This document shows, one piece after another, positions 11,201-62,531 of a DNA stretch of 64,000 nucleotides. The stretch comes from Acidobacteriota bacterium (lineage in GTDB: Bacteria; Acidobacteriota; Vicinamibacteria; Vicinamibacterales; CAVVIG01), in contig JAOBWF010000119.1 in assembly GCA_025463215.1 (NCBI GenBank), forward strand, positions 1,840 through 65,839, written 5' to 3'. Made by a program: the position numbers and the translations under genes. The notes under the pieces were generated by a model, which worked only from the letters and a program-made list of their open reading frames with translations, had not been told where the DNA came from and did not search any database. Each line of letters starts with the position of its first letter. Position 1 is the stretch's first letter.

Positions 11201-12523
11201 ATGGGCCGCAACACGCAGAAGAGGAACGTCCAGAAGGCGGTGACGCACGCGATCGGTCTGCACAAGCGCGGACAGTTCGACGAGGCTGAACGCGGCTACC
11301 GCGCCGTGCTCCGCCGGCAGCCGGACCATCCCGACGCCCTGCACTTTCTCGGATTGCTGTTGCATCGGCGCGGCGACACCGCGGCCGCTGTGGATTCAGT
11401 GCGGCGCGCCACCGTGGCCGCGCCCGGTTATGCCGACGCCTTCAACAACCTCGGGAACCTGCTCAAGCTGGCGGGGCAGTTCGCGGACGCCGAAACCGCG
11501 TACCGGCAGGCCCTCAGGCTGCGTCCGGATGACGCCAATGCCCACAGCAATCTAGGTGTCGTGCTCAGGGTGCGCGGACTGCTCGCCGACTCCGAAGCCG
11601 CATTGCGGCAGGCGATCGCGATCGACGGTCGTCACGTGCCGGCGCACACCAACCTTGGTCACGTCCTCAAGCGCGCTGGGCGGATCGAGGAGGCCATCGC
11701 CTCTTATCGCGCCGCGATTGCGCTGGATCCCGACAATCCGATGGGGCCGCGTGTGCTGGGACGCGCCTATCAGGCGAATGGCGAGCCGGACAAAGCGCGC
11801 GCCGTGTTCGAGGCCTGGGTCGCGCGCGATCCAGACAACCCCATCGCACGGCACATGCTCAGCGCGTGCACGAGCGGCGCGGCGCCCGCGCGGGCGTCCG
11901 ACGCATATGTCCGCACGTTGTTCGACGAGATTGCCGGCAGCTTCGACGAGCACCTGGCGGATCTGCGCTATCGCGCCCCTCAATTGATCGGCGAGGCGTT
12001 CGCCGCTGTGTGGCCCGAGCCGGTCGGCACGCTCGATGTGCTCGACGCGGGATGCGGTACCGGATTGTGCGCCGCGTTTCTGCGCCCGCAGGCGGGGGTG
12101 CTCGTCGGGATTGATCTATCCGGCGGCATGCTGCGCCGCGCAGAGGCGTTGCACGTCTACGATCAATTGATTGAAGGGGAGCTGACCACGTTTCTCGAGG
12201 CGCATGCGGGGAGCTACGACGCGATTGTGTCGGCCGACACGCTGTGCTATTTCGGGGTTCTCGACCGTGTGTTCAAGGCGGCGGCCGGCGCGCTGCGCCC
12301 GTCCGGCCGGCTGATCTTCACTGTAGAAAAATCGGCCGCGGACGCCGAGGACGGCTTTTGCCTCCAAACCCACGGGCGCTACAACCACGACGCGTCGTAT
12401 GTCAGGCGGGAGCTCGAAGACGTCGGCCTCGCGTTGGAACGATGTCAGGAAGCCGTGTTGCGCCACGAAGCCGGCACACCCGTGCCTGGCCTGGTCGTGA
12501 CGGCAACACGGCCCGCATCCTAA
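11201..12523 (+). CDS. TPR repeat / class I SAM-dependent methyltransferase fusion
   Basis: N-terminal TPR units (AETAYRQALRLRPDDANAHSNLG...) are followed by the methyltransferase motif I VLDAGCGTGLCAAFL. Start set at ATG 11201 (MGRNTQKR). Confidence 0.75.
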   Translation: MGRNTQKRNVQKAVTHAIGLHKRGQFDEAERGYRAVLRRQPDHPDALHFLGLLLHRRGDTAAAVDSVRRATVAAPGYADAFNNLGNLLKLAGQFADAETAYRQALRLRPDDANAHSNLGVVLRVRGLLADSEAALRQAIAIDGRHVPAHTNLGHVLKRAGRIEEAIASYRAAIALDPDNPMGPRVLGRAYQANGEPDKARAVFEAWVARDPDNPIARHMLSACTSGAAPARASDAYVRTLFDEIAGSFDEHLADLRYRAPQLIGEAFAAVWPEPVGTLDVLDAGCGTGLCAAFLRPQAGVLVGIDLSGGMLRRAEALHVYDQLIEGELTTFLEAHAGSYDAIVSADTLCYFGVLDRVFKAAAGALRPSGRLIFTVEKSAADAEDGFCLQTHGRYNHDASYVRRELEDVGLALERCQEAVLRHEAGTPVPGLVVTATRPAS

Positions 12524-12541
12524 TCGACCAGCACCACGCGG

Positions 12542-13102
12542 TTACCGGCAGCTGCCGTTGGCCACGACCCATTGCACCGGCGCGTCCAGCGAACCATCCG
12601 GCTTCTGCCGGCGGTAGCTGCCGTCCATGCGCTGGAAATGCAGGGTGACGTTTTCGGTGAGCCGGTCTTCTCCGCCGGATCCGCCGGTCGAGTACGACGA
12701 GATGCTGACGTTGCTCAATGTCAGCACCAGAAATTCCTGCTGGTCCCTGCCGGGCTTGCGCAGCGTCAGCGTCGCAGTTGGAACCGTGCGCCCGGTCACC
12801 GCGTCCATGATGACGTTCGGCGTCGCCACATCGATGAACTTGGTCAGCGAAATGTCCTGAATACAATCGGGAACCACCAGGCCATTCTTGGCTCGCCGTG
12901 CCGGCGCGGTGCCGTCCGACTCGCCCCACGACCAGGCCAGGACGTCGATTTCGTCCTTGTGCTTGTCGTCGGTGGACTCGCCTTTGATGTCGCCCAACTT
13001 GAGGAACATGTCGGTCGAGGCGCTGGCGACGCCGGGACACGCCGCGAGCGCGGCGGCCAGGGACACTGTGGTTGCGAACCGCTTCAAATACGATCGTTTC
13101 AT
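12542..13102 (-). CDS. hcp: Hcp1-family (T6SS tube protein fold) protein carrying an N-terminal Sec signal peptide
   Basis: Mature region has DMFLKLGDIKGESTDDKHKDEIDVLAWSWG and STGGSGGEDRLTENVTLHF. These are near-identical to blocks I remember from canonical Hcp1. It is preceded by MKRSYLKRFATTVSLAAALAACPGVASA. AAGGAG lies 7 nt upstream of ATG 13102. Confidence 0.85.
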   Translation of the reverse strand: MKRSYLKRFATTVSLAAALAACPGVASASTDMFLKLGDIKGESTDDKHKDEIDVLAWSWGESDGTAPARRAKNGLVVPDCIQDISLTKFIDVATPNVIMDAVTGRTVPTATLTLRKPGRDQQEFLVLTLSNVSISSYSTGGSGGEDRLTENVTLHFQRMDGSYRRQKPDGSLDAPVQWVVANGSCR

Positions 13103-13226
13103 CCGGATCTCCTTAGGGGGACCATAACCCTGGTCCACATCGTGAACCGCTGTCAAGGGTCGCCTCACGGCGATTCGCGCTCACGCCGGCGCGTGAAGAG
13201 GGTCGGCGTATCTGCCGCTGCGCACG

Positions 13227-13847
13227 CTACGGTACGTCGACGAGATGTCCGGCGATCGCGACGGTCACCGATTCGGCCCCGGTGGAACCGCTGCGGAACG
13301 CGTTCACGAGACCCCTGGTGCCAGGATCGGCGTAGAACTTCATCGCCTGCGTCGCTCCTGTGTAGGTGGAGTTATTGGCGGCCGCAGGCGGGACCGCGAA
13401 GGCGGAATACAGGTTGTTCAGGCGCGTATTGACGAAAACCTGAACGCTCTGGCCGATGTCGCCCGGCCGGTACATCGAAACCGTTTCCACCACCAGCCGC
13501 TTGCCGGCCGGTACCGCAAACGACTGCGACCCATTGGTGTCGCCGTTGGCGGTTCCGCCGCTGCCGCCGTTCGCGATGTTGATGTTGACGTTCAGCGAGT
13601 ACGGTTGGTCTGACGTCCCGTCCACCACGTGCACCGGGATCGGGTTCGCCGCGCTGTTCCCGACCGTCACCGCCACGTTGCCGGTCACGTTGGCGTCGAC
13701 CGTGCCGCTCACCGGAAGGGGCGTGTTGACGACCTGCACCGCGGTCGCGACCGCGGCGTCGGCCTGTTTCGGCGCGATCGAGGAAATCGACAGTGCCAGG
13801 ATTGAAACGCCGAGGGCCGCAGCCGCGAAGTGTACGAAACGTTTCAT
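13227..13847 (-). CDS. Secreted hypothetical protein (Gly/Asn/Val-rich beta protein)
   Basis: Start at MKRFVHFAAAALGVSILALSISSIAPKQADA (clear signal peptide). ATGA overlap with the stop of the upstream PEP-CTERM gene. No family recognised. Confidence 0.6.
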   Translation of the reverse strand: MKRFVHFAAAALGVSILALSISSIAPKQADAAVATAVQVVNTPLPVSGTVDANVTGNVAVTVGNSAANPIPVHVVDGTSDQPYSLNVNINIANGGSGGTANGDTNGSQSFAVPAGKRLVVETVSMYRPGDIGQSVQVFVNTRLNNLYSAFAVPPAAANNSTYTGATQAMKFYADPGTRGLVNAFRSGSTGAESVTVAIAGHLVDVP

Positions 13848-14620
13848 GAGAGACGTGTCCTTTGTTGAGCGATGGGTTGTGGACGGGTCGCGAACCGCTT
13901 TCGTAACAGGCCGACGAGACCGGTGCCGAGACACAGCACCGTGGTCGGTTCCGGCACGGGCTGCGCATCCGGTGGCGGTGTCACAACGGCGCTGCCGTAC
14001 GTGAGATCGAGCGCCCAATTGCCAGTCCGCTCCGCGCACGGGAAGTCAGGCGCAACGGCGCAGGTCTGAAATACGTCATTGGTGAAGTCGACGAACCCGT
14101 CGGCGATCGTCGAGTAGTCGGGAGGCCCAGGGTTGATCGCCGCGGGGAAATAGTTTGCGTCCGACAGCAGCAATGTGTAGGTCCCGGCAGCGAGGCCAGG
14201 GACGAACAGGCGCGCATCGCCGCAGACGGCCTGCCCGCCGATGTCTGCCATATTCGCCGGAGGGCAGGTCCCCTCGAATCCAGGAAAATTATCGGCGCTG
14301 AACAGCGGGTTGTTGGCGGCATCCAGCACGATGGTGGCGCTCGCGCCCGTGCCGGCAAACAGTGCGATCAGCGGATCGAACCCTCCCGTGGAGATCAGGT
14401 CCCCTTGCGCGTTGACTCCGCCGCCGAAAGACCATGTCTGGATGAGGACGTCAGACGCACTCGCCAGGCTGAAAGTCGTGGTAAACGTATCGGCCGATGT
14501 CGGCAGCACGCCGGCGAGGGACACCGAGGTGGCGAATGCAGGAGCGGGTGAGAGCAACGCCGCGGTGACCGCGGTCAGCAGCCAGCGCGTGACGCCTTTG
14601 CCGAGTGACCAGGATTTCAT
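13844..14620 (-). CDS. PEP-CTERM sorting-domain protein
   Basis: Signal peptide (MKSWSLGKGVTRWLLTAVTAALLSPAPAFA). C-terminal VPEP motif plus hydrophobic helix plus basic cluster (PVPEPTTVLCLGTGLVGLLRKR). Confidence 0.75.
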   Translation of the reverse strand: MKSWSLGKGVTRWLLTAVTAALLSPAPAFATSVSLAGVLPTSADTFTTTFSLASASDVLIQTWSFGGGVNAQGDLISTGGFDPLIALFAGTGASATIVLDAANNPLFSADNFPGFEGTCPPANMADIGGQAVCGDARLFVPGLAAGTYTLLLSDANYFPAAINPGPPDYSTIADGFVDFTNDVFQTCAVAPDFPCAERTGNWALDLTYGSAVVTPPPDAQPVPEPTTVLCLGTGLVGLLRKRFATRPQPIAQQRTRLS

Positions 14621-15248
14621 ATGGGTGTCGGTCCTCAATAGCGGAACGCACCGGATAGTGCACGCGCTGTTCCGGATGCGCATGCCCGATTGCGAGGAGG
14701 TGCAATCAACACGCTTCAGAGCGGGAACGCGCGTCACGGCTCCCACATGATCGCGGACGTCGATTTGCGGTACTGCGGCGACGGTTGCGCAAGACCGTCG
14801 TGGCGGCGCCTTTATTCTTCGCGTCGCCAGTTGGGCTGGCGTGGCGAACCGTCAGGAATGCGTTGCGCTCCCATGAGCCGACGCGCGGTGAAGACGATCA
14901 GCTCCCGTAGCGCCGTTGTGCAGTCTTGGAACGACCTTCACGCATACGGTTCCTCGCGTACGTCCCTTGGTAACAGAGGCCGTTTGCTGACGGGAATTCA
15001 TGGGTACATGGGGTATGCCGTCACGGGCAAGGTCCCCGCGTGCGTGTGGGCGGTAAACTCGCGAGAAAGCGGTGTAAGTGGTTGTGTGTATTGGTGACTT
15101 ACCTCTCCGGTGGGCCATAATCGGCCTGCCAGTCGGCCGCGCCCCGATCAAAGGATCGCGGAAGATGAGCGCGGAGCCGAGTACGAATTTCCCGTCAATC
15201 AGCGCCACGGACCAGCCTCGACTGCTGTTCCATTCGCAAGGAGACCCG

Positions 15249-17516
15249 ATGTCACGCCCTTTCGTCTGCGCGCTAGTCGTCGTCTGCTGCATCGGATCCG
15301 CCGCATGCCGCAAGATCAATGACGCCGATCACGTGCGACGAGGCAATGTCTATTTCGACGAGGGCCATTTCCAGGAAGCGATCATCGAGTACCGTGCCGC
15401 CCTTCAAGGTGATCCGAAGCTGGATGTGCGGCTGAAGCTGGGTGACGCTTACCTGCGCATGAACGACGCACGGAGTGCGCTGCACGAGTACGTGCGCGCC
15501 TCGGATCTGCAGCCCAAGAACATCGACGCCCAGATGAAGGCCGGCCGGTTACTGCTGGTGGCCCAACAATTCGAGGACGCGAAAACGCGGGCGGAACGCG
15601 CCATCGCGCTCGACCCCAGGAGCGTCGACGCGCAGGTGCTCCGCGGGAACGCGCTGGCAGGATTGAAGGATTTCGATGCCGCGATGGCGGATTACCAGGA
15701 CGCCATCGCGATTGACCCGACGCAGAACGCGGCGTACACGAACATCGGCACCCTGCAGCTTGCCCAGGGAAAGCGGACCGAGGCTGAGGAGACATTCAAG
15801 AAGGCCATCGCCGCGGCGCCCAAATCGGTCGCGGCGCGTCTGGCGCTTGCAAACCTCTACTGGTCGACCGGCGAGCCGGCGGTCGCCGAATCGACGCTGA
15901 AGGCCGCGCTGCAAATCGACGCCAAAGAAGTGACGGCGAATCGCGCGCTCGGCCTTCTCTACATGGCGACAAATCGAGTCACGGAAGCCGAGCCGTACTT
16001 CCTCGCCTTGGCGCGCGCCGGCAAGAGCGATACCGCGGTGATCACGCTCGCTGACTACTACGTCCTCGCGGGGCGTGCCGACGAAGCGAAGAAGATCCTG
16101 CAGGAGCTGGCGACCCACGATTCGGCGTACGCCCAGGCCAGCGTTCGTCTCGCCAGTCTTGGTGCGGCCGAAGGCCATCGCGCGGAAGCCCTCGACCGCC
16201 TCCATCAGGTGTTGGACAAGTTTCCGAAAAACCCACCAGCGCTGCTTCTGACGGCGCGCCTGCAACTGCTCGGCGGCAAACGTGCCGAGGCGATGACGGC
16301 CGCGAGTGCGGTCATTGCCAATGACCCGAGCTCCGCGGCCGCCGCCGCCGCGTGGATGCTGACTGGCGAAATCGAAATCGCAAGCGACCGATTCGACGAA
16401 GCCATCAGGGCTTATGAACAAGTGCTGAAGAGTCAACCTCGCCCTCTCGGGGCCGACATCGCGCTCGCGAGGCTGTACTTGACCAGACGCGATTCGAGCA
16501 AGGCGATCACCTTCGCCCAGCAGGCGTTGGCGATTCACCCGAGCCATCCGGAGGCCCAGAGCCTGCTGATACGCGCTGAAATCCAGAGTGGCGATCTGAA
16601 TCGCGCGACCACTGATTTGGCGTCGCTTCACAAGGCGTTTCCAAAGTCCATTGGGGTGACGAAGCTCACCGCGCTCGTGCAAGTGGCGTCCCGGCAACCG
16701 GACGCCGCGCGGGCGTCGTATCTACGCGTCCTCCAGGCCGCGCCGAACGATGCCGAGGCCCTGACCGCGCTCACGCAACTCGAGGTCAGTGGCGGCCACG
16801 CGAACGAAGCGGCCGCTCGTCTCGACGAACGACTACAGTCGGCGCCGCCGAGTGTGGAACTGCTCGTTCTCGCCGCACGCACACACGCCGCCACGCGCGA
16901 TTTGGACGGTGCCGAGGCTCTCCTGCGAAAGGCTGTCGACCTCGATCCCGGGCGCCTCCAGGCGTATGTCCTGCTGGGAGAGCTTTACACACGGCAGAAC
17001 CGCCTCGAAGAAGCCAAGACGAAGTTCCGCGACGTGCTCGCCCGCAATCCGAAATCGGTCGGCGCCGCCACGATGATTGCGATGCTGCTTGAGCAGCAGC
17101 ATCGCCTTCCAGAGGCAGAGGAGGGCTATGAACGGGTTCTGACCATGGACTCCCACGCGGCGGTGGCCGCGAATAATCTGGCGTGGATGTATCTCGCATC
17201 GAACCGCAACCTGGAGAAGGCGCTCAGCCTGGCACAAACCGCGCTGCAGCAGCTGCCGGACGAGCCGGCCGTCAACGACACGCTGGGTTGGGTTTACTAC
17301 CGCGAGAACATGGCGTCGACGGCGATTTCGTACCTGAAAACCGCCGTGAAGAACGCGCCGAACGATCCGAGCCACCATTTCCATCTTGGAATGGCGTATG
17401 TCCAGACCGGCCACTGGGACATGGCCCGACAGTCGCTCAAGCATGCGTTGACGCTGAAGGCCGATTTTGACGGCGCGGTCGAAGCGAAGAAAGCGTTGGC
17501 TACGATCGGAGAATAG
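15249..17516 (+). CDS. TPR-repeat lipoprotein, PrsT-like (PEP-CTERM system associated type)
   Basis: 755 aa made almost entirely of TPR units. Start at ATG 15249, preceded by AAGGAG. N-terminus MSRPFVCALVVVCCIGSAAC is lipoprotein-like. The architecture resembles PrsT as I recall it. Confidence 0.7.
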   Translation: MSRPFVCALVVVCCIGSAACRKINDADHVRRGNVYFDEGHFQEAIIEYRAALQGDPKLDVRLKLGDAYLRMNDARSALHEYVRASDLQPKNIDAQMKAGRLLLVAQQFEDAKTRAERAIALDPRSVDAQVLRGNALAGLKDFDAAMADYQDAIAIDPTQNAAYTNIGTLQLAQGKRTEAEETFKKAIAAAPKSVAARLALANLYWSTGEPAVAESTLKAALQIDAKEVTANRALGLLYMATNRVTEAEPYFLALARAGKSDTAVITLADYYVLAGRADEAKKILQELATHDSAYAQASVRLASLGAAEGHRAEALDRLHQVLDKFPKNPPALLLTARLQLLGGKRAEAMTAASAVIANDPSSAAAAAAWMLTGEIEIASDRFDEAIRAYEQVLKSQPRPLGADIALARLYLTRRDSSKAITFAQQALAIHPSHPEAQSLLIRAEIQSGDLNRATTDLASLHKAFPKSIGVTKLTALVQVASRQPDAARASYLRVLQAAPNDAEALTALTQLEVSGGHANEAAARLDERLQSAPPSVELLVLAARTHAATRDLDGAEALLRKAVDLDPGRLQAYVLLGELYTRQNRLEEAKTKFRDVLARNPKSVGAATMIAMLLEQQHRLPEAEEGYERVLTMDSHAAVAANNLAWMYLASNRNLEKALSLAQTALQQLPDEPAVNDTLGWVYYRENMASTAISYLKTAVKNAPNDPSHHFHLGMAYVQTGHWDMARQSLKHALTLKADFDGAVEAKKALATIGE

Positions 17517-17793
17517 CGCACTCGGCATCGTGTCGGTGACGCACGTTGGATCTTCCTCGAGCGGCAGGGCCACGCGATGCGTGCCGACGGCCGCAATGGG
17601 TCGTCGCTCGGCGGTTGTTTTGAACACCTAAAGTCACCGCGGCGGCAGACATGCGAACGGCCCGCGGCGCGAAATGGCGGACATCGATCTGCACATCCAC
17701 GACCGCTATCAGGAATTCCCGCAGAATCTGCGGATGGCAATCGCCGGCATCTCCTTTGCTCATCTGGTCGCGTCTCGATCAAAAGGAGATCTG

Positions 17794-18387
17794 ATGCGAC
17801 ATGTGAAGAGTGCAGTTCCATTTCTGCTTGCGTTCGCTATTTTGATCGGTGCGTCGGCCAGCGCGGCCGCCCAGGAAGCGTTTATCGGTGAGATCAGGTA
17901 CGTCGCATTCAATTTCGCTCCTCGCGGGTGGGCAGAGTGCAACGGCCAGATCATGTCAATCTCGCAGAACACCGCGCTGTTCTCCCTGCTCGGCACCACC
18001 TATGGCGGCAATGGGCAAACGACGTTCGCGTTGCCGAACATGCAGGGCCGCGTCCCCATTCATGCGGGACAGGGACCAGGGTTGTCGATGTACGTTCAGG
18101 GAGAGACCGACGGTGCAGAGCACGTGACGCTGTCCGTCAGCCAGATGCCGCCCCACACCCATCCGCTGGGTGCGAGCGGCGCGGAAGCGGGCGCCATTTC
18201 ACCGAATGGCAACGTGCTCGCGGCGAAGCAGCGCGTACCGCTCTACAACCCCGGGCCGCCCGATGTCGGCATGAGCCCGTTGGCGATCGGAAACGCGGGG
18301 AGCGGCCAGCCGTTCAGCGTTCTTCAGCCTTCGCTGACGATAAAGTGCATCATCGCGCTGGAAGGCATCTTCCCGTCGCGTCCGTAA
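17794..18387 (+). CDS. Phage tail-collar domain protein (MdpB-like), secreted
   Basis: FIGEIRYVAFNFAPRGWAECNGQIMSISQNTALFSLLGTTYGGNGQTTFALPNMQGR is the tail-collar signature. Signal peptide MRHVKSAVPFLLAFAILIGASASAAAQ. AAAGGAG sits upstream of ATG 17794. Confidence 0.8.
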   Translation: MRHVKSAVPFLLAFAILIGASASAAAQEAFIGEIRYVAFNFAPRGWAECNGQIMSISQNTALFSLLGTTYGGNGQTTFALPNMQGRVPIHAGQGPGLSMYVQGETDGAEHVTLSVSQMPPHTHPLGASGAEAGAISPNGNVLAAKQRVPLYNPGPPDVGMSPLAIGNAGSGQPFSVLQPSLTIKCIIALEGIFPSRP

Positions 18388-18428
18388 GTGCGCCGGACGC
18401 GATGCAGGTGTCCCAGTTCAAGGACTCT

Positions 18429-19130
18429 ATGAAGCTTATGACGTACGTCCGAATGGTCGTGTTGTTGATCGCCGGATCGCTGTACACCACCGTCGCCAGT
18501 GCAACACCGGTCGTGTTCACGGACCGTGCCTTGTTCGATGCGGCGACTGCCGGCTTGTCCGGCCTCAACACTCTCGATTTCGACTCGCTCCCGACAGGGC
18601 CACTGGGCAACGGCCCCGTCCAGGGGATTTCGTTTGCATTCAACACCGGGGTCTTCGCACCGACGGTCATCGATGCGTTCGATACGACGTCCGGACCGAA
18701 CTCGCTCGGAACCTCTGGCGACGATACGTTTCTGGCTGGCGATTCCTTTACGATGTCATTCGCGAGCCCCACCAACGCTATCGGGTTGTATGTGATCGCC
18801 GCCACAAACCTGTTCGCGAACGATTTCACGTTGACGACCAGTAGCGGCGGCACGGCGCACAATGCGACCAATCCGGAGACGATCCTGCCGGACACCGGCA
18901 AGGTGTTTTTCTTGGGATTGTATGATCCGGCACAGGCCATGACGTCGGCGACGTTGACGAGCAACGGCGTCAACGCCGATTTCCTGTTCAACGTCGACGA
19001 TATTCGCGGTCAGTTCGATCCACCCGGGGGAACACCGACCGGGACACCTGTGCCGGAACCAGGCAGCATGATTCTGGTTGCGACCGGCTTGTGTGCGGGT
19101 CTCCGCCGCTGGCGCAACGCGCGCGGCTGA
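18429..19130 (+). CDS. PEP-CTERM sorting-domain protein
   Basis: Signal peptide (MKLMTYVRMVVLLIAGSLYTTVASA). C-terminal PVPEPGSMILVATGLCAGLRRWRN. An alternative ATG lies at 18402. Confidence 0.75.
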   Translation: MKLMTYVRMVVLLIAGSLYTTVASATPVVFTDRALFDAATAGLSGLNTLDFDSLPTGPLGNGPVQGISFAFNTGVFAPTVIDAFDTTSGPNSLGTSGDDTFLAGDSFTMSFASPTNAIGLYVIAATNLFANDFTLTTSSGGTAHNATNPETILPDTGKVFFLGLYDPAQAMTSATLTSNGVNADFLFNVDDIRGQFDPPGGTPTGTPVPEPGSMILVATGLCAGLRRWRNARG

Positions 19131-26223: not shown

Positions 26224-27388
26224 ATGGGCACCGTTTATCGTCGCCAGGTGCGGTTCTGCACCGCCTGCGATCGGCGCCTCGATACGACCGCCGCGCGCAT
26301 TGCTTGCATGGCGGCGAGTCATGCGGTCGAACTCCGGGATCAGGGGCCTTGGTGGATCAAGTATCAGGTCCGGGGACGGCCCGTGTGCGTCAGCAGCGGC
26401 ACCGAGAGGAAAGAGGATGCGAAAAAGCTGCTTCGTCAGCGTGAGCACCTGGTGGACTCCGGCGCGCCGGTCACGGCGCACCAGAACCGCGTCACGTTCG
26501 AGGATGCGGCCGCGGATCTCGTCAACGATTACACGGTCAATAAGCGCCGCTCGCTGCGCACGGCCAACCTCCGGATCAGTAAGCACCTGACGCCCTACTT
26601 CGCGCACCGGCGGTTGATGACGATTACCGTCGTGGACGCGCGTGCCTACACCGGGCATCGTCTCCGCGAGGGCGCGTCCAATGCTTCGGTCAATCGCGAT
26701 CTCATGCTGCTCAAGCGCATGTGTACGCTGGCCATGCAGGCGGGGAAGTTGATGGTCCGGCCGTACATCCCGCTCCTGAAGGAGCACAACGTGCGGACGG
26801 GGTTCTTCGAGCCCCAGCAGTCGGCGAGCGTGCAACGCCACCTGCCCACGCACATGCGCGGAATCGCCGCATTCGCGTTCGTGACGGGCTGGCGCACGCC
26901 GAGCGAGATCCTCCCGCTCGAATGGCGGCAGGTCGATCTGAAACAGAACGAGGTCCGGCTCGACGTCGGCGCCACGAAGAACGGTGAGGGACGTGTGTTT
27001 CCGATCACGATCGAGCTGCGGCGGATCCTCGAATCGCAACAGGAGATCGCCAAGGTCGTGAAGCGCGAGCACGGGACGATCCCGCGCCATGTGTTCTGCT
27101 ATACGAAAGGCGCGAAAGCGGGGAACAGCGTCACGGAAGGCGGCTATAACAAGGCTTGGCGGAAGGCACGCGTTGCGGCTGGCTGCCCTGGACGGATCCC
27201 GCCACGACTTTCGTCGCACCGCGGTGCGCAATCTGGTGCGGGCCGGGGTGCCGGAGCGCGTCGCGATGCAGATGACCGGACACAAGACTCGAGCGGTGTT
27301 CGAGCGCTACAACATTGTCAGCCCTGGACATCTTCGCGACGCCGCGCGACGACTTGACACTTTCGCGTCGAGCACCGCCGCGATCTAG
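26224..27388 (+). pseudogene. Tyrosine recombinase / phage-type integrase, frameshifted before the catalytic HxxR
   Basis: The N-terminal 325 aa are read in the frame starting at 26224. The C-terminal catalytic block [39 protein letters not shown] is in another frame (ORF 27089..27388). Compared with the paralog at 30231-30240, one extra base is present near 27198-27204 (atcccgccacgac vs atctcgcacgac). Confidence 0.85.
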
Positions 27389-32404: not shown

Positions 32405-33151
32405 TTAGACGGTCTCGCGACGTCGGCGATACGCGGCGGCCGCGCCGCCGAGACCGACGAGCATCAGCGTCGCCGGCTCCGGCACGGGTACTCCTGTCAT
32501 GTCCGCGGGGCTGTGCATGATCAGCAGGTCGGAGCAGCCAAAGGGTCCGCATAGATTCGCTGTCAACGTCGTGGAAACTTCGTTGAACAGCCCGATCTGG
32601 TTCGCGCCGCTGGTGCCGTTGTACGACACCGAGCGCGGGCCGGGCGACGGACTGCCCGGCAGCGGGTCGCCGTAAACTTGCGTCGCCGCACCCAGACCGT
32701 TGAGCGTTCCGTTCAGCGCAAGGTCGATAATGTCGCCGAACGACACGCCGCCAACGCTGTACCCGTCGGAATACATCCAGATCGAGCCGTTATTGATCGC
32801 GAGGACGTCGCTGACGCCGGTGTACTGACTCGCGATCGGGTTGTAGGCAGCGTCGAGCAGAAAAATGTACGCGGTGTCCCAGTGCGGCGAGTCGAACGAC
32901 GGTACGAATACAGGATCTCCGGTCACGGCATCGAAGCCGTCCTGCACAGTGCCGACGAACAGCTGGTAATTCAGGTTTTCGCTGTAGTGGCTGATGCTTC
33001 CGCCGTGACCGTCGCCTTCGCCGGCATCACACGTCGTCACGAGCGTGTTGATGTCGGTCGTGCAGCCGATGGCGAAGGGACTCGCGTGTGCAGTCGACGC
33101 GAACGTCGTGACGCAGACAGCGGCCAGGATGGGAGCAATGAACTTCGTCAT
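32405..33151 (-). CDS. PEP-CTERM sorting-domain protein
   Basis: Signal peptide MTKFIAPILAAVCVTTFASTAHA. C-terminal VPVPEPATLMLVGLGGAAAAYRRRR. Confidence 0.75.
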   Translation of the reverse strand: MTKFIAPILAAVCVTTFASTAHASPFAIGCTTDINTLVTTCDAGEGDGHGGSISHYSENLNYQLFVGTVQDGFDAVTGDPVFVPSFDSPHWDTAYIFLLDAAYNPIASQYTGVSDVLAINNGSIWMYSDGYSVGGVSFGDIIDLALNGTLNGLGAATQVYGDPLPGSPSPGPRSVSYNGTSGANQIGLFNEVSTTLTANLCGPFGCSDLLIMHSPADMTGVPVPEPATLMLVGLGGAAAAYRRRRETV

Positions 33152-33617: not shown

Positions 33618-36600
33618 ATGAACCGATACTTGCCGGTCTGTGTTATGGCGTCGTTCGTTTTTTTGATGGCTGCGGCTGCGGCCGCGGACCAACTGACCGT
33701 CACTCTCAACACCGACACTTGGGGAGGCGTTCCCGGCAGGCAAGGAGAAGTCGGCGATCTTCGATGGACCCTGCTGGTCGCAGGGGAGGGCGACACGATT
33801 GTGTTCGACTGCGGCTCCCCCTGCCACGTCATTCTGAGGGCCCCGTTGGCCCCGATTACGCACGACGTGACGATTGACGGCGGCCCCCTCGGAACGATCA
33901 TCGACGGCGACAATGTCCATCGTGTGTTCTTCGTCGATACGGGCCACGTCGTTCTGCGCAACCTCCGAATTCAGAATGGCCGCGCAAAAGGCGGCGATGG
34001 CGGCCCCGGGCACCGTGGGAGCGGTGGAGGCGGCGGCCTCGGTGCCGGCGGCGGCCTCTTCGTCAACCAGACCGCCGCTTCGGCGACCCTCATCGACGTT
34101 TCCTTCGTGAATTGCAGCGCAGTGGGCGGCGCCGGCGGTGGTTCCATCGCTGGCAACGGGGGCGGCGGAGGGGGCGGCCTCCTATTCCCTGGTGGAGCAG
34201 GTGTGGGTGGAGCCGGTGGCGGCGGCGGCGGAATTTACGGGGCGGGCGCAGACAGCGGTCCGGGCCTCGATGCGGGGAATGGTGGCGACGGCGGTGGCGC
34301 CGGGGGCGCCCCGGGTATGGTGTGGTGCGTGTTGCAGTGTCCGATTGGCATTCCGGGCAATGCCGGATGGGCCTTTACGACGAACGCACCGGCGACGACT
34401 AGCGCGCTGTGGATTAATAACTCTCTCAATGCAATCAACGGGAGTATGAGTCAAACCATCTTCGTGTTTTCGGCTGGGAACGGCGGCTTCGGCGGCGGCG
34501 GCGGTGGCGGCGCCCCTTCAAATTTTTTCCATGATGGCCCAGCGGGAAAAGGCGGCTTTGGTGGCGGCGGTGGCGGCGGAGCTGGCGCCTTAGTGCGCGA
34601 ATTTGGAGGAGACGGCGGACCGGGCGGCGGCGGTGGTGCAGGTGGTGTGCTCGATTCTCAGAATAGCGCTGGCGAACCGGGGCTCGGCGGACTACTCGCG
34701 AATGGGGTGTACGGTGGCCGAGGCGACTTCTTGAACAACGAATCGACCGGCGGCGGCGGTGCCGCGGCTGGGCCGGCCGTGTTTGTCAATCAAGGCAGTT
34801 TGACGACGAGCAATAGTGCCTCTACGGGGAGCATCGCGCGACCTGGAGGGGGCGGTGCGACCGCTGATGCGACTCCCGTCTTCAATTACGGTGGAATGGT
34901 CAACGGCTCGACAGAGGTCGGGCCGATCGCCAGTGCCCTCTCCCTCTCAATCTCCATGCTGTCGATTCAACAATCGTTTAGTGCACCGGACATCCCGTTA
35001 GGCGGGATCACCACTTTAACCATCGCGATCACCAATCCAAATTCGTCCGAGGTGCTCTCTGACGTCTCGTTCGTCGATTATCTTCCCGCCGGCCTTACGG
35101 TGGCCACACCGGACGGGTTGACAGCGGCATGTGACGGGTTTCTTTTCCAACGAAGTTATGGCGCGTTCATCGCGGCAGGTAATGTGGTGTCCACTTCCGG
35201 AGCGCAACTGTTTCCAGGCGCGTCGTGCTTCTACTCGGTGAATGTGATCGGCACGGCCCTTGGCCGCCAGACCAACAGCATTCGTGTTGGTTTGAGGTAC
35301 GCCACTGGGGCGCCGTCGCTCGCGGCGGTCACGGTCGGCGCGCAGACGATCACATTCAACGCGGTACCCCCCATCACCTTCGATGCCGGTCCGGCGCTGC
35401 TGAGCGCAGCGGCATCATCCAATCTCCCGGTCACCTTTACGTCGATAACACCTTCGATCTGTGCCCCGGTCGGGAATACCGTCACGCTGCTGGCCGTGGG
35501 CACGTGTTCGATCACTGCGAACCAGAGTGGCGGCACGACCTACGCCGCCGCTGCGACCGTGACGCAAAGCTTCGGCATCACTGCCGGAACGCAAACGATT
35601 GCATTCGGTGCATTGCCCAATGCCGGATTCGGGTCCGGCCCGATTACGCTCACGGCAATCGCATCGTCCAACCTGCCCGTGAGCTTCTTCTCGATAACCC
35701 CAATTGTCTGCGCTGCCGGCGGAAACATCGTCACGTTGCTGAGCGTCGGCGCATGTTCGATCACCGCGACTCGCGCGGGCACCGCCAACTACGCAGCCGC
35801 AGCGAACGTGACGCAGAGTTTCCTCATCAACGCCGGAGCGCAGACGATCGCGTTCGCGCCGCTAAGTACCGCAGCGTTCGGCGCTGGGCCCGTCGCGCTG
35901 GTTGCCACCGCGTCGTCCAATCTAACCGTGACGTTCGTGTCGACTACACCCGCGATCTGTGGTGTCATCGGCGATACCGTTTCACTTGTGAATGTCGGCA
36001 CCTGTTCGATCACCGCGAGCCAAGGGGGTAGCGCGAGCTACCTGGCCGCGCAAAGCGTGGCTGGGAATCTCACGGTGAAAAGATTTGAGTACTCCCTTGT
36101 TACGACCGTGGCCGGCACGCAGGGCCAAGAAGGCACAACCGACGGGACCGCCAGCACGGCGCGGTTCTCGCTTCCCAAGGGCATCGCGGCTGACGCTGGT
36201 GGCTCCCTCTATGTCGCAGATACGTTCAACCACACGGTTCGCAAGATCACGGTTGGCGGAGTTGTGTCCACCGTTGCGGGCCTAGGCGGTGTGAGTGGTG
36301 AGGCGGACGGCACCGGTGACGCCGCGCGGTTTCTCTATCCGGCCGGTGTGGCGGTGGACCCTTCCAATAATGTCTATGTTGCCGACACCAGCAACCACAC
36401 GATCCGCAAGATCACAAGCGCTGGTGTTGTGACGACGCTCGCAGGCACCGCGTCGACGCGTGGCGCGTCAGATGGAACGGGAAGTGGCGCGCAATTCTTC
36501 TTCCCGACCGGGATCGGGCTGGACACTTCAGGGAATCTCTACGTGGGCGATCAGAACAACAACAAAGTTCGGAAGATCACCCCAGCCGGTGTCGTCTCGA

Positions 36601-38570
36601 CGTTGGCGGGTGCGGACAATCCACAGACCGCCGGCGAAGTTGTTTGGGCGGACGGCGCCGGTGGCGAGGCGCGGTTCAGGCGGCCGACGGGCGTGGCAGT
36701 GGATCTCGCTGGCACCGTGTACGTTGCCGACGAACTCAATCACGTCATCCGCAAAGTCACTAGCGCTGGCTCGGTGACCACGTTCGCCGGTGCCCATGGC
36801 AGCAGCGGCTCGGAGGACGGCGTTGGAAGTGCTGCGCGGTTCTTCCGTCCCAATGGTGTAGCCGTGGACAGCGTCGGAACGGTCTACGTCGCGGATACAA
36901 ACAACTCGACGATTCGGAAAATCACGAGCGATGGAGTGGTCACGACGCTCGCAGGAGAGGCGGGAGAGGGAGGTTTCGCGGATGGAAGCCCGCCTGCCGC
37001 ACGGTTCAGCCTTCCGACCGCGCTTGCGCTGGACGGCCTGGGCAACCTGTACGTGGCGGACACCGGCAATCAGACGATTCGCCGCATCGTGCTCGTGCCG
37101 ACCGCCCCGGCCGGCGCTGGGCCGGCCGCATCGCTCACCCCCGCGAGTCTGACGTTTGCGAGCCAGGCCCTGAATGCCGCTAGCGTCACTCAACGCATCA
37201 CGATCACGAATAGCGGCGCCGCTCCGCTGGTATTCGGTTCCATCTCAACGACGGCTGAGTTCAACCAAACCAACACGTGCGCCACACTGCCCGTCGGTGC
37301 GACCTGCACAGTGGATGTCGCATTTCGGCCAACGGCAGGCCAACTCCGAACCGGCGCATTGGTGCTTGCCACCAACGACCCTCACAGTCCAACGACGATT
37401 CCGATGAGCGGGCGCGGAGGGTTTCCAGCGTTCTCGTTCAGCCCCTCGCCACTGCTGTTTGCAAATCAACCGATCGGCACGACGAGCGGTAGTCTGCGGA
37501 TCGTGTTGACCAACAGCGGCCAAGACACGCTCAGCATCGGTTCCGTCGCGACGACCGGTCCGTTTTCACCCGTAACCGGCTGTCCGACGCTGAATCCCGC
37601 TGCAGGCTGCAATCTCGATGTGACCTTCACGCCAACGACGGCCGGCATTCAATCGGGATTGTTGATCGTCACGGACACCGGCGGTTCGCCGCACCAAGTG
37701 ACACTCACAGGATCCGGATTTGCAATCGCACCCGTCTCGACGCCGCCAGGCTCGAGCGTGCCCGTCCAGAGCGCGGGAGCGGCGATCACCTTCACAACCG
37801 TAACCGAAGGCGGTGTTACGACCGTAACGGCCCTCGGCGCTCCGACACAACTAAATCTCAGTGTCCCGGGAGGATTCGCAATCACTGGGAGCAGCTTGGC
37901 GTTCGAGATCCATACCAGCGCCGTCTTCGCGGGAAATGTCCAAGTCTGCTTCGATGCGCATGCGCTATCAAACGATGACTTCGCAGTCGCCGTGGTGCTT
38001 CATGGTGAAGGCGGCGCCCTTGTGCCGTACCCGACCACGCGATATTCGGTGACGCGGATGCTGTGTGCCGTCGTGCCGTCGCTAAGCCCGTTCGTGATCG
38101 GCACCATCGTCGACTCACGTCTCAGCCTTCCGTTCTCGAATCAACCGCCGGTCTGCTCAACAGCAACGGGCACGACGTTGCCGATGTACCCGATGGACCA
38201 CGGCCTCCGATTCGTATCTATCGCACACGTGACCGATCTCGACGGCGATCCGCTCGCCACCAGAATTATCGCGATCTGCCAAGACGAGCTCACGAACTTT
38301 GAAAACATGGCCGCTTATGCGATCGACGGGGCGGGTCTCGGCACCGCAACCGCCGCGATTCGCGCAGAGATCAGCGGTACCCGCGCAACCCCGAGCAACG
38401 GTCGCGTGTATCACATCTTCTTCAACGGTGACGATGGCAGGGGCGGGATGTGCTCCGGCGAAATAAAGATCGGGGTGCCGACATCGCCGACCGGCACAGC
38501 GATCGACGGCGGTGCCATGTACGACTCGACGAAGTCTAGCGGCGCGTGCAGGGTGCCAGGAGGACTTTAG
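33618..38570 (+). CDS. Giant secreted multidomain protein (Gly-rich beta-helix-like, Ig-like repeats, NHL propeller, choice-of-anchor-D-like domains)
   Basis: 1650 aa with a signal peptide. GGxGGxGG runs with FVN motifs. Three 81-aa repeats (Q TI.F..L....FG.GP..L.A.ASSNLPV.F.S.TP..C...GN.VTLL.VG.CSITA). Six NHL-like blades (G.A.D..GN.YVAD..N..IRKIT). Two L.F..Q..G..S......TNSG...L.I.S....G.F......C.......C...V.F.P domains. The last 330 aa or so are unassigned. Confidence 0.85.
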   Translation: MNRYLPVCVMASFVFLMAAAAAADQLTVTLNTDTWGGVPGRQGEVGDLRWTLLVAGEGDTIVFDCGSPCHVILRAPLAPITHDVTIDGGPLGTIIDGDNVHRVFFVDTGHVVLRNLRIQNGRAKGGDGGPGHRGSGGGGGLGAGGGLFVNQTAASATLIDVSFVNCSAVGGAGGGSIAGNGGGGGGGLLFPGGAGVGGAGGGGGGIYGAGADSGPGLDAGNGGDGGGAGGAPGMVWCVLQCPIGIPGNAGWAFTTNAPATTSALWINNSLNAINGSMSQTIFVFSAGNGGFGGGGGGGAPSNFFHDGPAGKGGFGGGGGGGAGALVREFGGDGGPGGGGGAGGVLDSQNSAGEPGLGGLLANGVYGGRGDFLNNESTGGGGAAAGPAVFVNQGSLTTSNSASTGSIARPGGGGATADATPVFNYGGMVNGSTEVGPIASALSLSISMLSIQQSFSAPDIPLGGITTLTIAITNPNSSEVLSDVSFVDYLPAGLTVATPDGLTAACDGFLFQRSYGAFIAAGNVVSTSGAQLFPGASCFYSVNVIGTALGRQTNSIRVGLRYATGAPSLAAVTVGAQTITFNAVPPITFDAGPALLSAAASSNLPVTFTSITPSICAPVGNTVTLLAVGTCSITANQSGGTTYAAAATVTQSFGITAGTQTIAFGALPNAGFGSGPITLTAIASSNLPVSFFSITPIVCAAGGNIVTLLSVGACSITATRAGTANYAAAANVTQSFLINAGAQTIAFAPLSTAAFGAGPVALVATASSNLTVTFVSTTPAICGVIGDTVSLVNVGTCSITASQGGSASYLAAQSVAGNLTVKRFEYSLVTTVAGTQGQEGTTDGTASTARFSLPKGIAADAGGSLYVADTFNHTVRKITVGGVVSTVAGLGGVSGEADGTGDAARFLYPAGVAVDPSNNVYVADTSNHTIRKITSAGVVTTLAGTASTRGASDGTGSGAQFFFPTGIGLDTSGNLYVGDQNNNKVRKITPAGVVSTLAGADNPQTAGEVVWADGAGGEARFRRPTGVAVDLAGTVYVADELNHVIRKVTSAGSVTTFAGAHGSSGSEDGVGSAARFFRPNGVAVDSVGTVYVADTNNSTIRKITSDGVVTTLAGEAGEGGFADGSPPAARFSLPTALALDGLGNLYVADTGNQTIRRIVLVPTAPAGAGPAASLTPASLTFASQALNAASVTQRITITNSGAAPLVFGSISTTAEFNQTNTCATLPVGATCTVDVAFRPTAGQLRTGALVLATNDPHSPTTIPMSGRGGFPAFSFSPSPLLFANQPIGTTSGSLRIVLTNSGQDTLSIGSVATTGPFSPVTGCPTLNPAAGCNLDVTFTPTTAGIQSGLLIVTDTGGSPHQVTLTGSGFAIAPVSTPPGSSVPVQSAGAAITFTTVTEGGVTTVTALGAPTQLNLSVPGGFAITGSSLAFEIHTSAVFAGNVQVCFDAHALSNDDFAVAVVLHGEGGALVPYPTTRYSVTRMLCAVVPSLSPFVIGTIVDSRLSLPFSNQPPVCSTATGTTLPMYPMDHGLRFVSIAHVTDLDGDPLATRIIAICQDELTNFENMAAYAIDGAGLGTATAAIRAEISGTRATPSNGRVYHIFFNGDDGRGGMCSGEIKIGVPTSPTGTAIDGGAMYDSTKSSGACRVPGGL
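35337..36080 (+). repeat. Three tandem 243-bp coding repeats (Ig-like domains) inside the giant gene
   Basis: Protein repeats begin GAQTITFNAVPP, GTQTIAFGALPN and GAQTIAFAPLST. Antisense ORFs in the track (35231..35536, 35540..35788, 35789..36013) mirror the periodicity. Confidence 0.7.
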
Positions 38571-38951: not shown

Positions 38952-39063
38952 TTACACTTGCGGTGACACATGCCGATCGGCGGCGGCGATCGTCCACGAG
39001 TCGGGCGATTTCAGGCGAGATTTCGACGCGGAGGGATGGCCGAGTGGTCGATGGCGGTGGTCT
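38952..39063 (+). repeat. Right copy of the island-bounding repeat (tRNA-Ser upstream flank plus nt 1-34)
   Basis: Partner of 25658-25771. See that feature. Confidence 0.6.
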
Positions 39064-39119
39064 TGAAAACCACTGAACCGGAAACGGTTCCGGGGGTTCG
39101 AATCCCTCTCCCTCCGCCA
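39030..39119 (+). tRNA. tRNA-Ser (anticodon UGA)
   Basis: GGAGGGA acceptor pairs with TCCCTCC. Anticodon stem GTGGT/ACCAC with loop CTTGAAA. Long variable arm, GGTTCGAATCC T-loop, and encoded CCA. Confidence 0.9.
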
Positions 39120-40129: not shown

Positions 40130-40516
40130 TTACGCCGCGGTGATGTCGGTGTGTGTGAAATCTTCGCCGACGAACAGCAGCGAGTCGTTCGCGGTCGCCG
40201 CCGCCGCGTAGGCGAGACAGTCGCCGAAGTTCAGCGCCGCTTTGTGACGGCCACGGCCGAACCTGAGAAACGCGTCGGTCGCCGCGTGCCATTCCCGTTC
40301 GCCGAACGGCACGACGGTGACCCCCAATTCCTGCACCACCGCCCGAACCTCGCCGGCCGAGCCGGCCTTTCGGCGGCTAGCGAACACGATGCTGGTCTCG
40401 ACCAGCGTCGGTGCCCCGACGCGCACGCCGGGCGCCGACAGAATTCTGTCGATCAGATCGAGATGCCCGTGTTCGCCGAACATGATGGCGATCAGCGCCG
40501 ACGAATCGAGCGTCAT
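40130..40516 (-). CDS. vapC: Type II toxin VapC (PIN-domain ribonuclease)
   Basis: MTLDSSALIAI... (Asp near the N-terminus), ...FGDCLAYAAA..., ...LLFVGEDFTHTD. This is the classical PIN acidic quartet pattern. ATGA overlap with the upstream antitoxin. Confidence 0.85.
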   Translation of the reverse strand: MTLDSSALIAIMFGEHGHLDLIDRILSAPGVRVGAPTLVETSIVFASRRKAGSAGEVRAVVQELGVTVVPFGEREWHAATDAFLRFGRGRHKAALNFGDCLAYAAAATANDSLLFVGEDFTHTDITAA

Positions 40517-40782
40517 ACGCCGTCCGCGCCGAAGCCGAGGATTTCGTCTTCCTCGGCCCGCGTGAGCCGGCGGCCCCGCTCGGCGTCGGGCAGGGTGACC
40601 CACACTTTCTTCTGGAGCAATTTCAAGACGCGATCCCGCCGCTGTTCGATCGACCGCCCTTTCAAGCGCTCCTGACGTTCCTGCAGGGCGCGGCGGATCG
40701 CTTCGGTTTTGGATTCGCCGGTCATGCGGGCCACCTCGGCGGCCAGCCGCTCGACGTCCGCATTCTTGAGGTTGAGCGCCAT
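40513..40782 (-). CDS. vapB: Type II antitoxin VapB (FitA/Rv0623-like)
   Basis: MALNLKNADVERLAAEVARMTGESKTEAIRRALQERQERL is the conserved N-terminus of this antitoxin type. 89 aa. Confidence 0.75.
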   Translation of the reverse strand: MALNLKNADVERLAAEVARMTGESKTEAIRRALQERQERLKGRSIEQRRDRVLKLLQKKVWVTLPDAERGRRLTRAEEDEILGFGADGV

Positions 40783-62437: not shown

Positions 62438-62531
62438 GGTGAGGTGGCCGAGTGGCCGAAGGCGGCGGTTTGCTAAACCGTTGTACGACCTTAAAGTTGT
62501 ACCCAGGGTTCGAATCCCTGCCTCACCGCCA
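62438..62531 (+). tRNA. tRNA-Ser (anticodon GCU)
   Basis: GGTGAGG acceptor pairs with CCTCACC. Anticodon stem GCGGT/ACCGT with loop TTGCTAA. Long variable arm, GGTTCGAATCC T-loop, and encoded CCA. Confidence 0.9.

Follow-up and report, generated by a model that had tools for sequence, protein, structure and literature searches.

The hcp gene at positions 12542-13102 (minus strand) of a 64,000-nucleotide stretch of Acidobacteriota DNA (contig JAOBWF010000119.1 of assembly GCA_025463215.1; the whole stretch is called the window below) encodes a protein in which an Hcp1-type domain follows a predicted signal peptide for the general secretory (Sec) pathway. Hcp (TssD) of type VI secretion systems (T6SS) carries no signal peptide, is polymerised in the cytoplasm and is exported by sheath contraction. 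The lack of a signal peptide has made it the hallmark T6SS substrate, and an hcp gene is routinely read as evidence of a T6SS. We put at roughly 0.7 the probability that the window gene encodes a pre-Hcp exported by Sec across the inner membrane, rather than a subunit polymerised on a cytoplasmic T6SS baseplate. On this reading a large Hcp1-type lineage would have switched to the general secretory pathway.

The two sequence blocks from which the original prediction had recognised an Hcp1-like protein are both found in the open reading frame (ORF), and one of them, STGGSGGEDRLTENVTL, is identical in Hcp1 of Pseudomonas aeruginosa (PA0085). The Pfam family T6SS_HCP (PF05638) matches residues 33-163 with an E-value of 5.6e-30 (104.7 bits against a cut-off of 23.5), and the best PDB match is the P. 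aeruginosa Hcp1 structure 1y12 (E 1.2e-43), in which query residues 29-177 pair with chain residues 5-154 at about 50% identity over 150 residues. The curated NCBIfam TssD model TIGR03344 scored the protein at 26 bits, under its cut-off of 58.9. An AlphaFold2 (AF2) monomer model made with 77 homologs had a predicted local distance difference test score (pLDDT) of 79 overall and above 90 over most of the core, and the best Foldseek matches in the PDB were Hcp structures (1y12, with a target-normalised template-modelling score of 0.81-0.83, and 8yun, with 0.90). Forty-eight alignment columns conserved to at least 80% hold the same residue in signal-peptide Hcps and in canonical, signal-less Hcps. 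A search of 5.8 billion proteins returned an identical entry (P0001), named 'MAG: Hcp1 family ... [Acidobacteria bacterium]', where MAG stands for metagenome-assembled genome.

The N-terminal extension is 28 residues long, not 29 as had been claimed, and reads MKRSYLKRFATTVSLAAALAACPGVASA before STDMF. The best 120 relatives, which range from 100% to about 50% identity, are nearly all 177-203 residues long and cover the query from residue 1. Signal-peptide statistics were taken from the 111 full-length homologs among sequences down to about 50% identity to the query, and signal peptides were judged by residue composition, hydropathy and conservation. In all 111 the extension is in frame and has signal-peptide properties: a median length of 27 residues (range 25-45), a median of three Lys or Arg among residues 1-12, acidic residues at 0.05 per signal peptide, and a median hydropathy of 2.0 over the best 10-residue segment. 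Position −3 relative to the predicted cleavage site is Ala, Val, Thr, Ser or Ile, and position −1 is Ala or Ser, each in 110 homologs. Pairwise identity is 0.39 in the signal peptide and 0.61 in the mature part; low identity combined with conserved physico-chemical properties is the pattern expected of a signal peptide. The AF2 model has a pLDDT below 50 for residues 1-27. Predicted cleavage after Ala28 leaves (A/S)(V/T)DMF..., which in the alignment is the N-terminus of PA0085 Hcp1 minus Met1. The basic n-region, hydrophobic core and ASA site described in the original prediction, and its observation that cleavage would leave STDMFLK where cytoplasmic Hcps usually start, were thus upheld, and the survey for Hcp homologs with signal peptides that it called for found them in quantity. 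Taken together, these features strongly support a predicted Sec/signal peptidase I signal peptide at residues 1-28. Codon differences from the homolog at locus L097 add a weak indication: in the signal-peptide region they fall 15, 10 and 6 times at codon positions 3, 1 and 2, the mature part being out of register in this comparison owing to an indel.

Initiation at the ATG of the 186-codon ORF agrees with the local DNA signals. The Shine-Dalgarno-like AAGGAG reported upstream of it is present, although its spacer is 6 nt and not 7. Met32, the sole internal Met (MFLK), was correctly described as lacking such a signal: no GGAG-like motif was found on inspection of the sequence before it, and a start there would lose the conserved (A/S)(V/T)D N-terminus. 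A longer, GTG-initiated ORF reaching 13168 finds no support, because homologs begin MK[RK]S... at the ATG. A scan of positions 12300-13400 for promoters and terminators gave nothing beyond shuffled expectation. Neither Pfam nor NCBIfam gave a PEP-CTERM match in the window Hcp, which ends ...VVANGSCR.

Cysteine pair, extended loop and lineage

The window protein has a Cys at position 80, in the alignment column of PA0085 Asn52, where strand beta3 begins after the extended loop, and a second at position 185, the penultimate residue, on a tail that runs past the canonical Hcp1 end. Cys80 is present in all of the best 120 homologs and Cys185 in 119, the exception being a frameshifted fragment. Clade specificity was assessed on three sets: 164 sequences having both the signal peptide and the Cys pair, 37 whose signal peptide comes without that pair, and 82 canonical ones. 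The Cys80 column holds Cys in 0.98 of the signal-peptide/Cys clade and in 0.01 of canonical Hcps, and Cys80 and Cys185 are the only two positions that pass a strict clade-specific test. A C-terminal Cys occurs together with a signal peptide in 164 sequences and, truncated or borderline calls aside, in none of the canonical ones; no canonical (MAVDMF-starting) Hcp of the set has it. An invariant Cys pair found only alongside a signal peptide fits folding in an oxidising compartment. Together with the export signal, the pair makes it almost certain that the protein acts beyond the cytoplasm. The extended loop differs as well, with a median length of 16 residues in the signal-peptide clade against 18 in canonical Hcps, a Gly fraction of 0.14 against 0.32 and a Lys+Arg fraction of 0.16 against 0.07. 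This altered composition suggests a changed ligand or interface.

Compared with Hcp1-type TssD, then, the window protein shares the fold and, once processed as predicted, the N-terminus; it adds a cleavable predicted Sec signal peptide, the two Cys residues and a short C-terminal extension, has a shorter, Gly-poor and basic extended loop, and lacks neighbouring tss genes. Specialised Hcps with C-terminal effector extensions are not known to have signal peptides; they carry toxin domains and depend on a T6SS. Reuse of the Hcp domain as a carrier or scaffold for C-terminal fusions is common to them and to the signal-peptide relatives, but the latter carry adhesin-like extracellular domains instead of toxins, and the window protein itself extends by just about 4 residues and a Cys. 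Tail-tube proteins of phages and of extracellular contractile injection systems (eCIS) are distant Hcp-fold relatives that form stacked hexameric rings and assemble in the cytoplasm without signal peptides; no sequence-level match to them was seen, and the query belongs clearly to the Hcp1 family. Engineered Hcp1 G90C/R157C, which disulfides link into nanotubes (Ballister et al., cited in PMC11011275), is a further parallel. The engineered protein resembles the window protein in being a two-cysteine Hcp1-type subunit with one Cys near the C-terminus, Cys185 lying 4 residues past the R157 equivalent; the natural pair is placed elsewhere, at the N52 equivalent and in the C-terminal tail.

The combination of signal peptide and Hcp domain is not confined to close relatives. 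A HMMER search of 1.84 billion representatives clustered at 50% identity gave 7444 matches at E <= 1e-3, and the best 150 of these included 97 single-domain proteins, of which 76 had a signal peptide (the C-terminal Cys being present in 46 and missing in 30) and 21 had none. A neighbour-joining tree built from 212 mature domains placed 80 of the 83 sequences with signal peptide and Cys in one clade of 89 and canonical Hcps in a separate clade (74 of 76), with signal-peptide sequences without the Cys pair between the two. By these sequence criteria, the predicted signal-peptide + Hcp architecture is one that defines a large, largely monophyletic lineage. Signal-peptide versions occur in GTDB MAGs labelled Acidobacteriota, Rhodocyclaceae, Burkholderiales, Actinomycetota, Verrucomicrobiales and Pontiella (Kiritimatiellota), labels that may err for short contigs, and in the isolate Geomesophilobacter sediminis (Geobacteraceae). 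By MAG label the span would reach across Acidobacteriota, Betaproteobacteria, Geobacterales, Verrucomicrobiota, Kiritimatiellota and Planctomycetota, and possibly Nitrosopumilaceae. The last of these is represented by one 5.2-kb contig (L045; GC content 33.6%), binned as an ammonia-oxidising Nitrosopumilaceae archaeon, with two signal-peptide Hcp genes; if the binning is right, it would place an Hcp-family protein in the Archaea. No T6SS is known in Nitrosopumilaceae. A tblastn search of 72,556 plasmids from cultured bacteria matched 90 records, and all 15 listed matches align only from query residue 29; these 15 are signal-less Hcps.

Tandem signal-peptide hcp genes are found in Verrucomicrobiales, in Pontiella and on the Nitrosopumilaceae-binned contig, and the second copy is C-terminally extended. 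The extensions contain SdrD-B and legume lectin domains in one case, TSP3, MopE and HYR domains in another, and a weak TSP3 match in a third (Table 1); no Pfam domain was found in the extension of a fourth (L044:10537-11472). SdrD-B, lectin, TSP3 and HYR are typical extracellular adhesion modules. Twenty-three further 50%-identity clusters (P0121-P0129, P0131-P0133, P0135, P0137-P0139, P0141, P0144, P0149, P0164, P0169, P0208 and P0220) contain exactly six tandem Hcp domains in one chain of 1000-2200 residues, with linkers of about 15-25 residues. Because an Hcp ring has six subunits, these chains are probably covalent single-chain Hcp pseudo-hexamers. A single-sequence AF2 prediction of one of them, P0128, reached a pLDDT of 30 and a predicted template-modelling score of 0.25, values too low to be informative. 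An N-terminal E.LE.R.LL motif is present in 13 of the 23 clusters; in P0129 it matches the Planctomycete extracellular family PF07595 with 23.1 bits, below the cut-off of 25.5.

Gene neighbourhoods and the TPR-methyltransferase partner

The original prediction had reported no T6SS genes in the window, and the searches agree. Pfam scans of about 50 ORFs identified no T6SS core family in the window, its content being housekeeping genes, a PEP-CTERM/PrsT region, an integrase, peptidases and similar genes. Fourteen profile hidden Markov models (HMMs) of T6SS-cluster families gave no match at E <= 1e-3 in the six-frame translated window or in 20 signal-peptide loci, while three control loci matched the TssB, TssC, TssF, TssG and ClpV HMMs at 1e-90 or better. 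ORFs were also clustered across 84 loci (15 with signal-peptide Hcp and 69 canonical), and the clusters were named by Pfam and counted per locus. In the 69 canonical loci TssC was found in 65, TssB in 61, TssA and TssF in 59 each, TssG in 58, ClpV in 47, TssL in 18 and VgrG in 17; none of the eight was found in any of the 15 signal-peptide loci. Directly 3' of hcp, many canonical T6SS loci have another Hcp-like gene, divergent at about 25-36% identity, whose product starts M..GDMFLK, examples being L016:10580-11101, L052:10509-10997, L055:10514-11002 and L082:10514-11002.

The only gene family common to signal-peptide Hcp neighbourhoods encodes a tetratricopeptide-repeat (TPR) protein with a class I S-adenosylmethionine (SAM) methyltransferase domain. 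In the window it is convergent with hcp, their stops 18 nt apart. Pfam assigns TPR families to its N-terminal part, followed by Methyltransf_11/25/12/23; no signal peptide was found in it, and no NCBIfam model names it. It is a cytoplasmic protein, and the claim that all neighbours of the window hcp are Sec or PEP-CTERM exported proteins holds for the two genes upstream but not for this one. Its TPR part comes closest to OGT/SPINDLY, its catalytic part to METTL27 and other class I methyltransferases. Like OGT/SPINDLY, the partner joins a TPR superhelix, which in those enzymes binds substrate, to a transferase, but its catalytic domain is a methyltransferase and not a glycosyltransferase, and its link to Hcp is purely genomic. 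The gene adjoins signal-peptide hcp in 12 of the 14 loci with informative flanks, the window included. Adjacent full-length homologs, 40-74% identical, are present in L005, L006, L008-L011, L019, L088/89, L093, L094/95 and L097; L004 and L090 are without it, and in L012 and L020 the flank ends at the contig end. A DNA-pattern scan of metagenomes for hcp loci yielded three loci, one of them informative. The orientation of the partner varies (upstream, co-directional or convergent), and the rest of the surroundings is unrelated from locus to locus; because the pair is maintained in these variable orientations, a functional link between hcp and the methyltransferase gene is indicated. At two loci of one Acidobacteriota species (L006:5329-13599 and L007:7045-12173) the signal-peptide hcp/TPR-methyltransferase pair lies beside eCIS_core (PF13699) and Tail_P2_I baseplate genes, which make up a contractile-injection-like cluster; the association is confined to that species and treated as coincidence.

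Full-length homologs of the partner (40-49% identical) are also present in 12 of the 69 canonical Hcp loci. In ten canonical T6SS loci the gene order is tssA-tssB-tssC-hcp-...-tssF-tssG-clpV-[TPR-methyltransferase], and in five of them (L015, L016, L017, L018 and L055) the gap after clpV is 8-227 nt; in one locus the gene lies upstream of tssA. The canonical T6SS loci with the partner come from several phyla. At the twelfth locus (L054) an orphan, signal-less canonical hcp is followed by the methyltransferase gene with no other tss gene within 10 kb, an arrangement that may be intermediate between the T6SS-embedded and the signal-peptide forms. Whether the canonical Hcps nearest to the signal-peptide lineage are enriched for clusters with the partner was also asked; ranks 3-6 carry it, and a Mann-Whitney test gave p 0.09, so that no enrichment is claimed. 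The hcp/TPR-methyltransferase pair is an evolutionary module older than signal-peptide acquisition. The role independent of T6SS that was originally proposed stands in so far as T6SS genes are absent from the window and from 20 further loci, but 'independent' needs softening, because the conserved partner gene is also an accessory of canonical T6SS clusters. No paper on the TPR-methyltransferase or on a T6SS accessory role for it was found in the searchable literature, which leaves most subscription journals outside its reach.

Probable export by Sec and its alternatives

The reading we favour can be set out as a sequence of steps. Signal peptidase I would cleave the predicted signal peptide at 28|29 and restore the normal Hcp1 N-terminus, after which Cys80 and Cys185 would oxidise to a disulfide that fastens the additional C-terminal tail to the point, at the foot of the extended loop, where strand beta3 begins. 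As the core is conserved, the mature protein would still form Hcp-like hexameric rings, and the ring may serve as a scaffold or binding module in the periplasm or outside the cell, a role without sheath-driven firing. More weakly, we infer that the TPR-SAM-methyltransferase is a functional partner inherited from a T6SS ancestor; pre-Hcp, bound through the OGT-like TPR domain, may be methylated or kept export-competent ahead of export. Several points weigh against this picture. In the subclade to which the window protein belongs, the AxA site has a competitor in LAAC, a well-formed lipobox; the conserved partner is also a T6SS-cluster gene, and some tie to T6SS biology is possible; a cytoplasmic enzyme acting on a Sec substrate would be unusual; and the idea that it methylates or chaperones Hcp, drawn from gene linkage and domain analogy, is speculative.

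The lipobox underlies the alternative that in the closest subclade the protein is a lipoprotein, cut before Cys22 by signal peptidase II, with the ring tethered to the membrane by the 8-residue linker CPGVASAS. LAAC occupies residues 19-22 at the end of the 13-residue hydrophobic core and fits the pattern [LVI][ASTVIL][GAS]C. The lipobox suggested in the original prediction is thus present in the window protein, but it does not extend to the family: it occurs in 20 of the 111 homologs, the window protein and 19 relatives, all within the closest subclade (P0001-P0027). Position 22 is Cys in just 27 of 120 homologs, Ser in 50 and Pro in 22, and because it is Ser or Pro in most, predicted processing by signal peptidase I is the family rule. 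Subclade members P0015 (Phe) and P0018, P0019 and P0028 (Ser) are without Cys22 and all retain the downstream AxA; Pro at −6 followed by AxA makes a normal signal peptidase I c-region; and eight residues would make a very short tether for a ring. We therefore regard lipoprotein processing in this subclade as unlikely, while giving it real weight. Export through the twin-arginine translocation (Tat) pathway, which carries already folded proteins and would suit a ready hexameriser, is a different matter. The hydrophobic core is just moderately hydrophobic (rich in Thr, Ser, Gly and Ala), two adjacent Arg residues occur in the n-region of 28 of the 111 homologs, and the NCBIfam TAT-signal model gives a weak match (E 0.16). 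That match, at 12.3 bits, is far under the cut-off of 48.45, the window protein has Lys-Arg and no S/T-R-R-x-F-L-K motif, and the Cys pair fits oxidation after Sec export. Tat export is unlikely because the twin Arg occurs in so few homologs (it is absent from 83) and not in the window protein, and we give it next to no credence.

Two further readings keep the protein within T6SS biology. The extension might be untranslated, with translation from an internal start yielding a canonical Hcp in the cytoplasm for a T6SS elsewhere in the genome; in favour of this are the 50% identity of the mature part to a true tube protein and the 48 shared columns. Against an internal start stand the missing Shine-Dalgarno sequence and the lost N-terminus at Met32, the in-frame extension with signal-peptide properties in 111 homologs, the invariant Cys pair, which would be unexplained in a cytoplasmic protein, and T6SS genes in 0 of 21 loci against TssC in 65 of 69 canonical ones, so that it appears very improbable. 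An exported protein might instead remain linked to the T6SS, as a periplasmic decoy or sponge for Hcp-carried effectors or as an accessory of a T6SS elsewhere. The lumen of Hcp rings is where effectors bind, the core of the Hcp1-type ring is conserved here, and the partner gene sits in canonical T6SS clusters (after clpV in 10, upstream of tssA in 1). Yet no signal-peptide locus searched has T6SS genes, the extended loop is unlike that of tube Hcps in length and composition, signal-peptide Hcps of other lineages are fused to adhesin-like extracellular domains, and one locus (L045) is binned with Nitrosopumilaceae archaea; we consider a T6SS link of this kind improbable.

Export by Sec, if it holds, has consequences beyond this gene. 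Public sources call such proteins 'Hcp1 family type VI secretion system effector' or 'type VI secretion system secreted protein Hcp', names that would mislead T6SS censuses. The lineage would be a clear natural case of a phage-tail-like tube subunit in another compartment, with the clade-specific Cys pair marking the switch. The coupling of the TPR-SAM-methyltransferase to hcp both in and out of T6SS clusters would offer a handle on possible Hcp modification or chaperoning, and the six-domain single-chain proteins would be covalent Hcp rings made by nature, the ring being in use already as a nanoscaffold. A bolder proposal, rather doubtful in our estimate, is that signal-peptide Hcps are subunits of hitherto unrecognised Sec-dependent, sheath-less rings or disulfide-stapled tubes or fibres, extracellular or periplasmic and descended from the T6SS, that the TPR-methyltransferase modifies or chaperones the subunit, and that the six-domain and lectin-tipped versions of Planctomycetota and Verrucomicrobiota form one system with them. 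The searchable full-text literature, which most subscription journals lie outside, gave no account of signal-peptide Hcps; in PMC3482391 the only mention is of Hcp1 fused to toxins. Fold and family are known; what appears undescribed in that literature is the change of compartment, the Cys pair, the lineage's size and the partnership with the methyltransferase.

Other genes of the window

Coordinates of the features discussed above, and of further genes, are collected in Table 1.

Table 1. Features of the window and of related loci (positions with a locus prefix refer to that locus; all others to the window)
Feature	Position	Strand	Basis or remark
Gene for the 186-residue pre-protein (signal peptide + Hcp domain), including stop	12542..13102	-	ORF list, sequence
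Predicted signal peptide, codons 1-28, MKRSYLKRFATTVSLAAALAACPGVASA, predicted signal peptidase I cleavage after ASA28	13019..13102	-	conserved n/h/c structure
Shine-Dalgarno-like AAGGAG, 6 nt upstream of ATG (13102-13100)	13109..13114	-	read from sequence
Mature Hcp domain, codons 29-186, STDMFLK...ANGSCR	12545..13018	-	alignment to PA0085 residues 5-154
Codon Cys80	12863..12865	-	aligned to Asn52 of PA0085
Codon Cys185	12548..12550	-	penultimate residue
440-residue cytoplasmic TPR + class I SAM-methyltransferase	11201..12523	+	Pfam; convergent, 18 nt from hcp stop
206-residue protein with signal peptide, no known family	13227..13847	-	upstream, co-directional
PEP-CTERM protein, DVUA0089 family	13844..14620	-	Pfam 23.1 vs 20.7 bits; NCBIfam NF038127 76.3 vs 29
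PrsT TPR protein	15078-17516	+	just passes TIGR02917, 318.7 vs 312.2 bits
Phage Tail Collar domain ORF	17674-18387	+	overlaps the ORF at 17928
PEP-CTERM protein	17928-19130	+	
Phage-type integrase	26224-27357		
PEP-CTERM protein	32405-33151	-	
1650-residue NHL-repeat/Ig-like protein	33618-38570		
tRNA gene	39030-39119		
PIN-domain protein	40130-40603		
tRNA gene	44365-44459		inside PQQ-dehydrogenase ORF, possibly spurious
668-residue protein, N-terminal C39-like peptidase domain	46449-48455		
tRNA gene	62438-62531		
Second hcp copy + SdrD-B + legume lectin	L070:10605-13541		Pfam
Second hcp copy + TSP3 + MopE + HYR	L045:2846-5146		Pfam
Second hcp copy + weak TSP3	L026:1230-2267		22.7 bits, under cut-off 25
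TPR-methyltransferase after clpV	L015:17649-19010		
TPR-methyltransferase after clpV	L016:18359-19810		
TPR-methyltransferase after clpV	L017:17537-18874		
TPR-methyltransferase after clpV	L018:16821-18176		
TPR-methyltransferase after clpV	L034:18723-20024		
TPR-methyltransferase after clpV	L052:18789-20120		
TPR-methyltransferase after clpV	L055:18230-19558		
TPR-methyltransferase after clpV	L060:17322-20121		duplicated
TPR-methyltransferase after clpV	L063:18779-20155		
TPR-methyltransferase after clpV	L082:18572-19939		
TPR-methyltransferase upstream of tssA	L073:5218-6618		
Orphan signal-less canonical hcp, then TPR-methyltransferase	L054:9992-11961		no other tss gene within 10 kb

The two genes upstream of hcp, both with exported products, overlap by 4 nt, the stop of the DVUA0089-family gene overlapping the start of the gene for the 206-residue protein. 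The latter is conserved only in contigs of the same species and did not group with other signal-peptide Hcp loci in ORF clustering. Linkage to PEP-CTERM genes was considered as a defining partnership and rejected: it is seen in the window's own species and weakly at L005, and is not conserved across loci. An exosortase-type region occupies positions 13844-19130 and 32405-33151 of the window.

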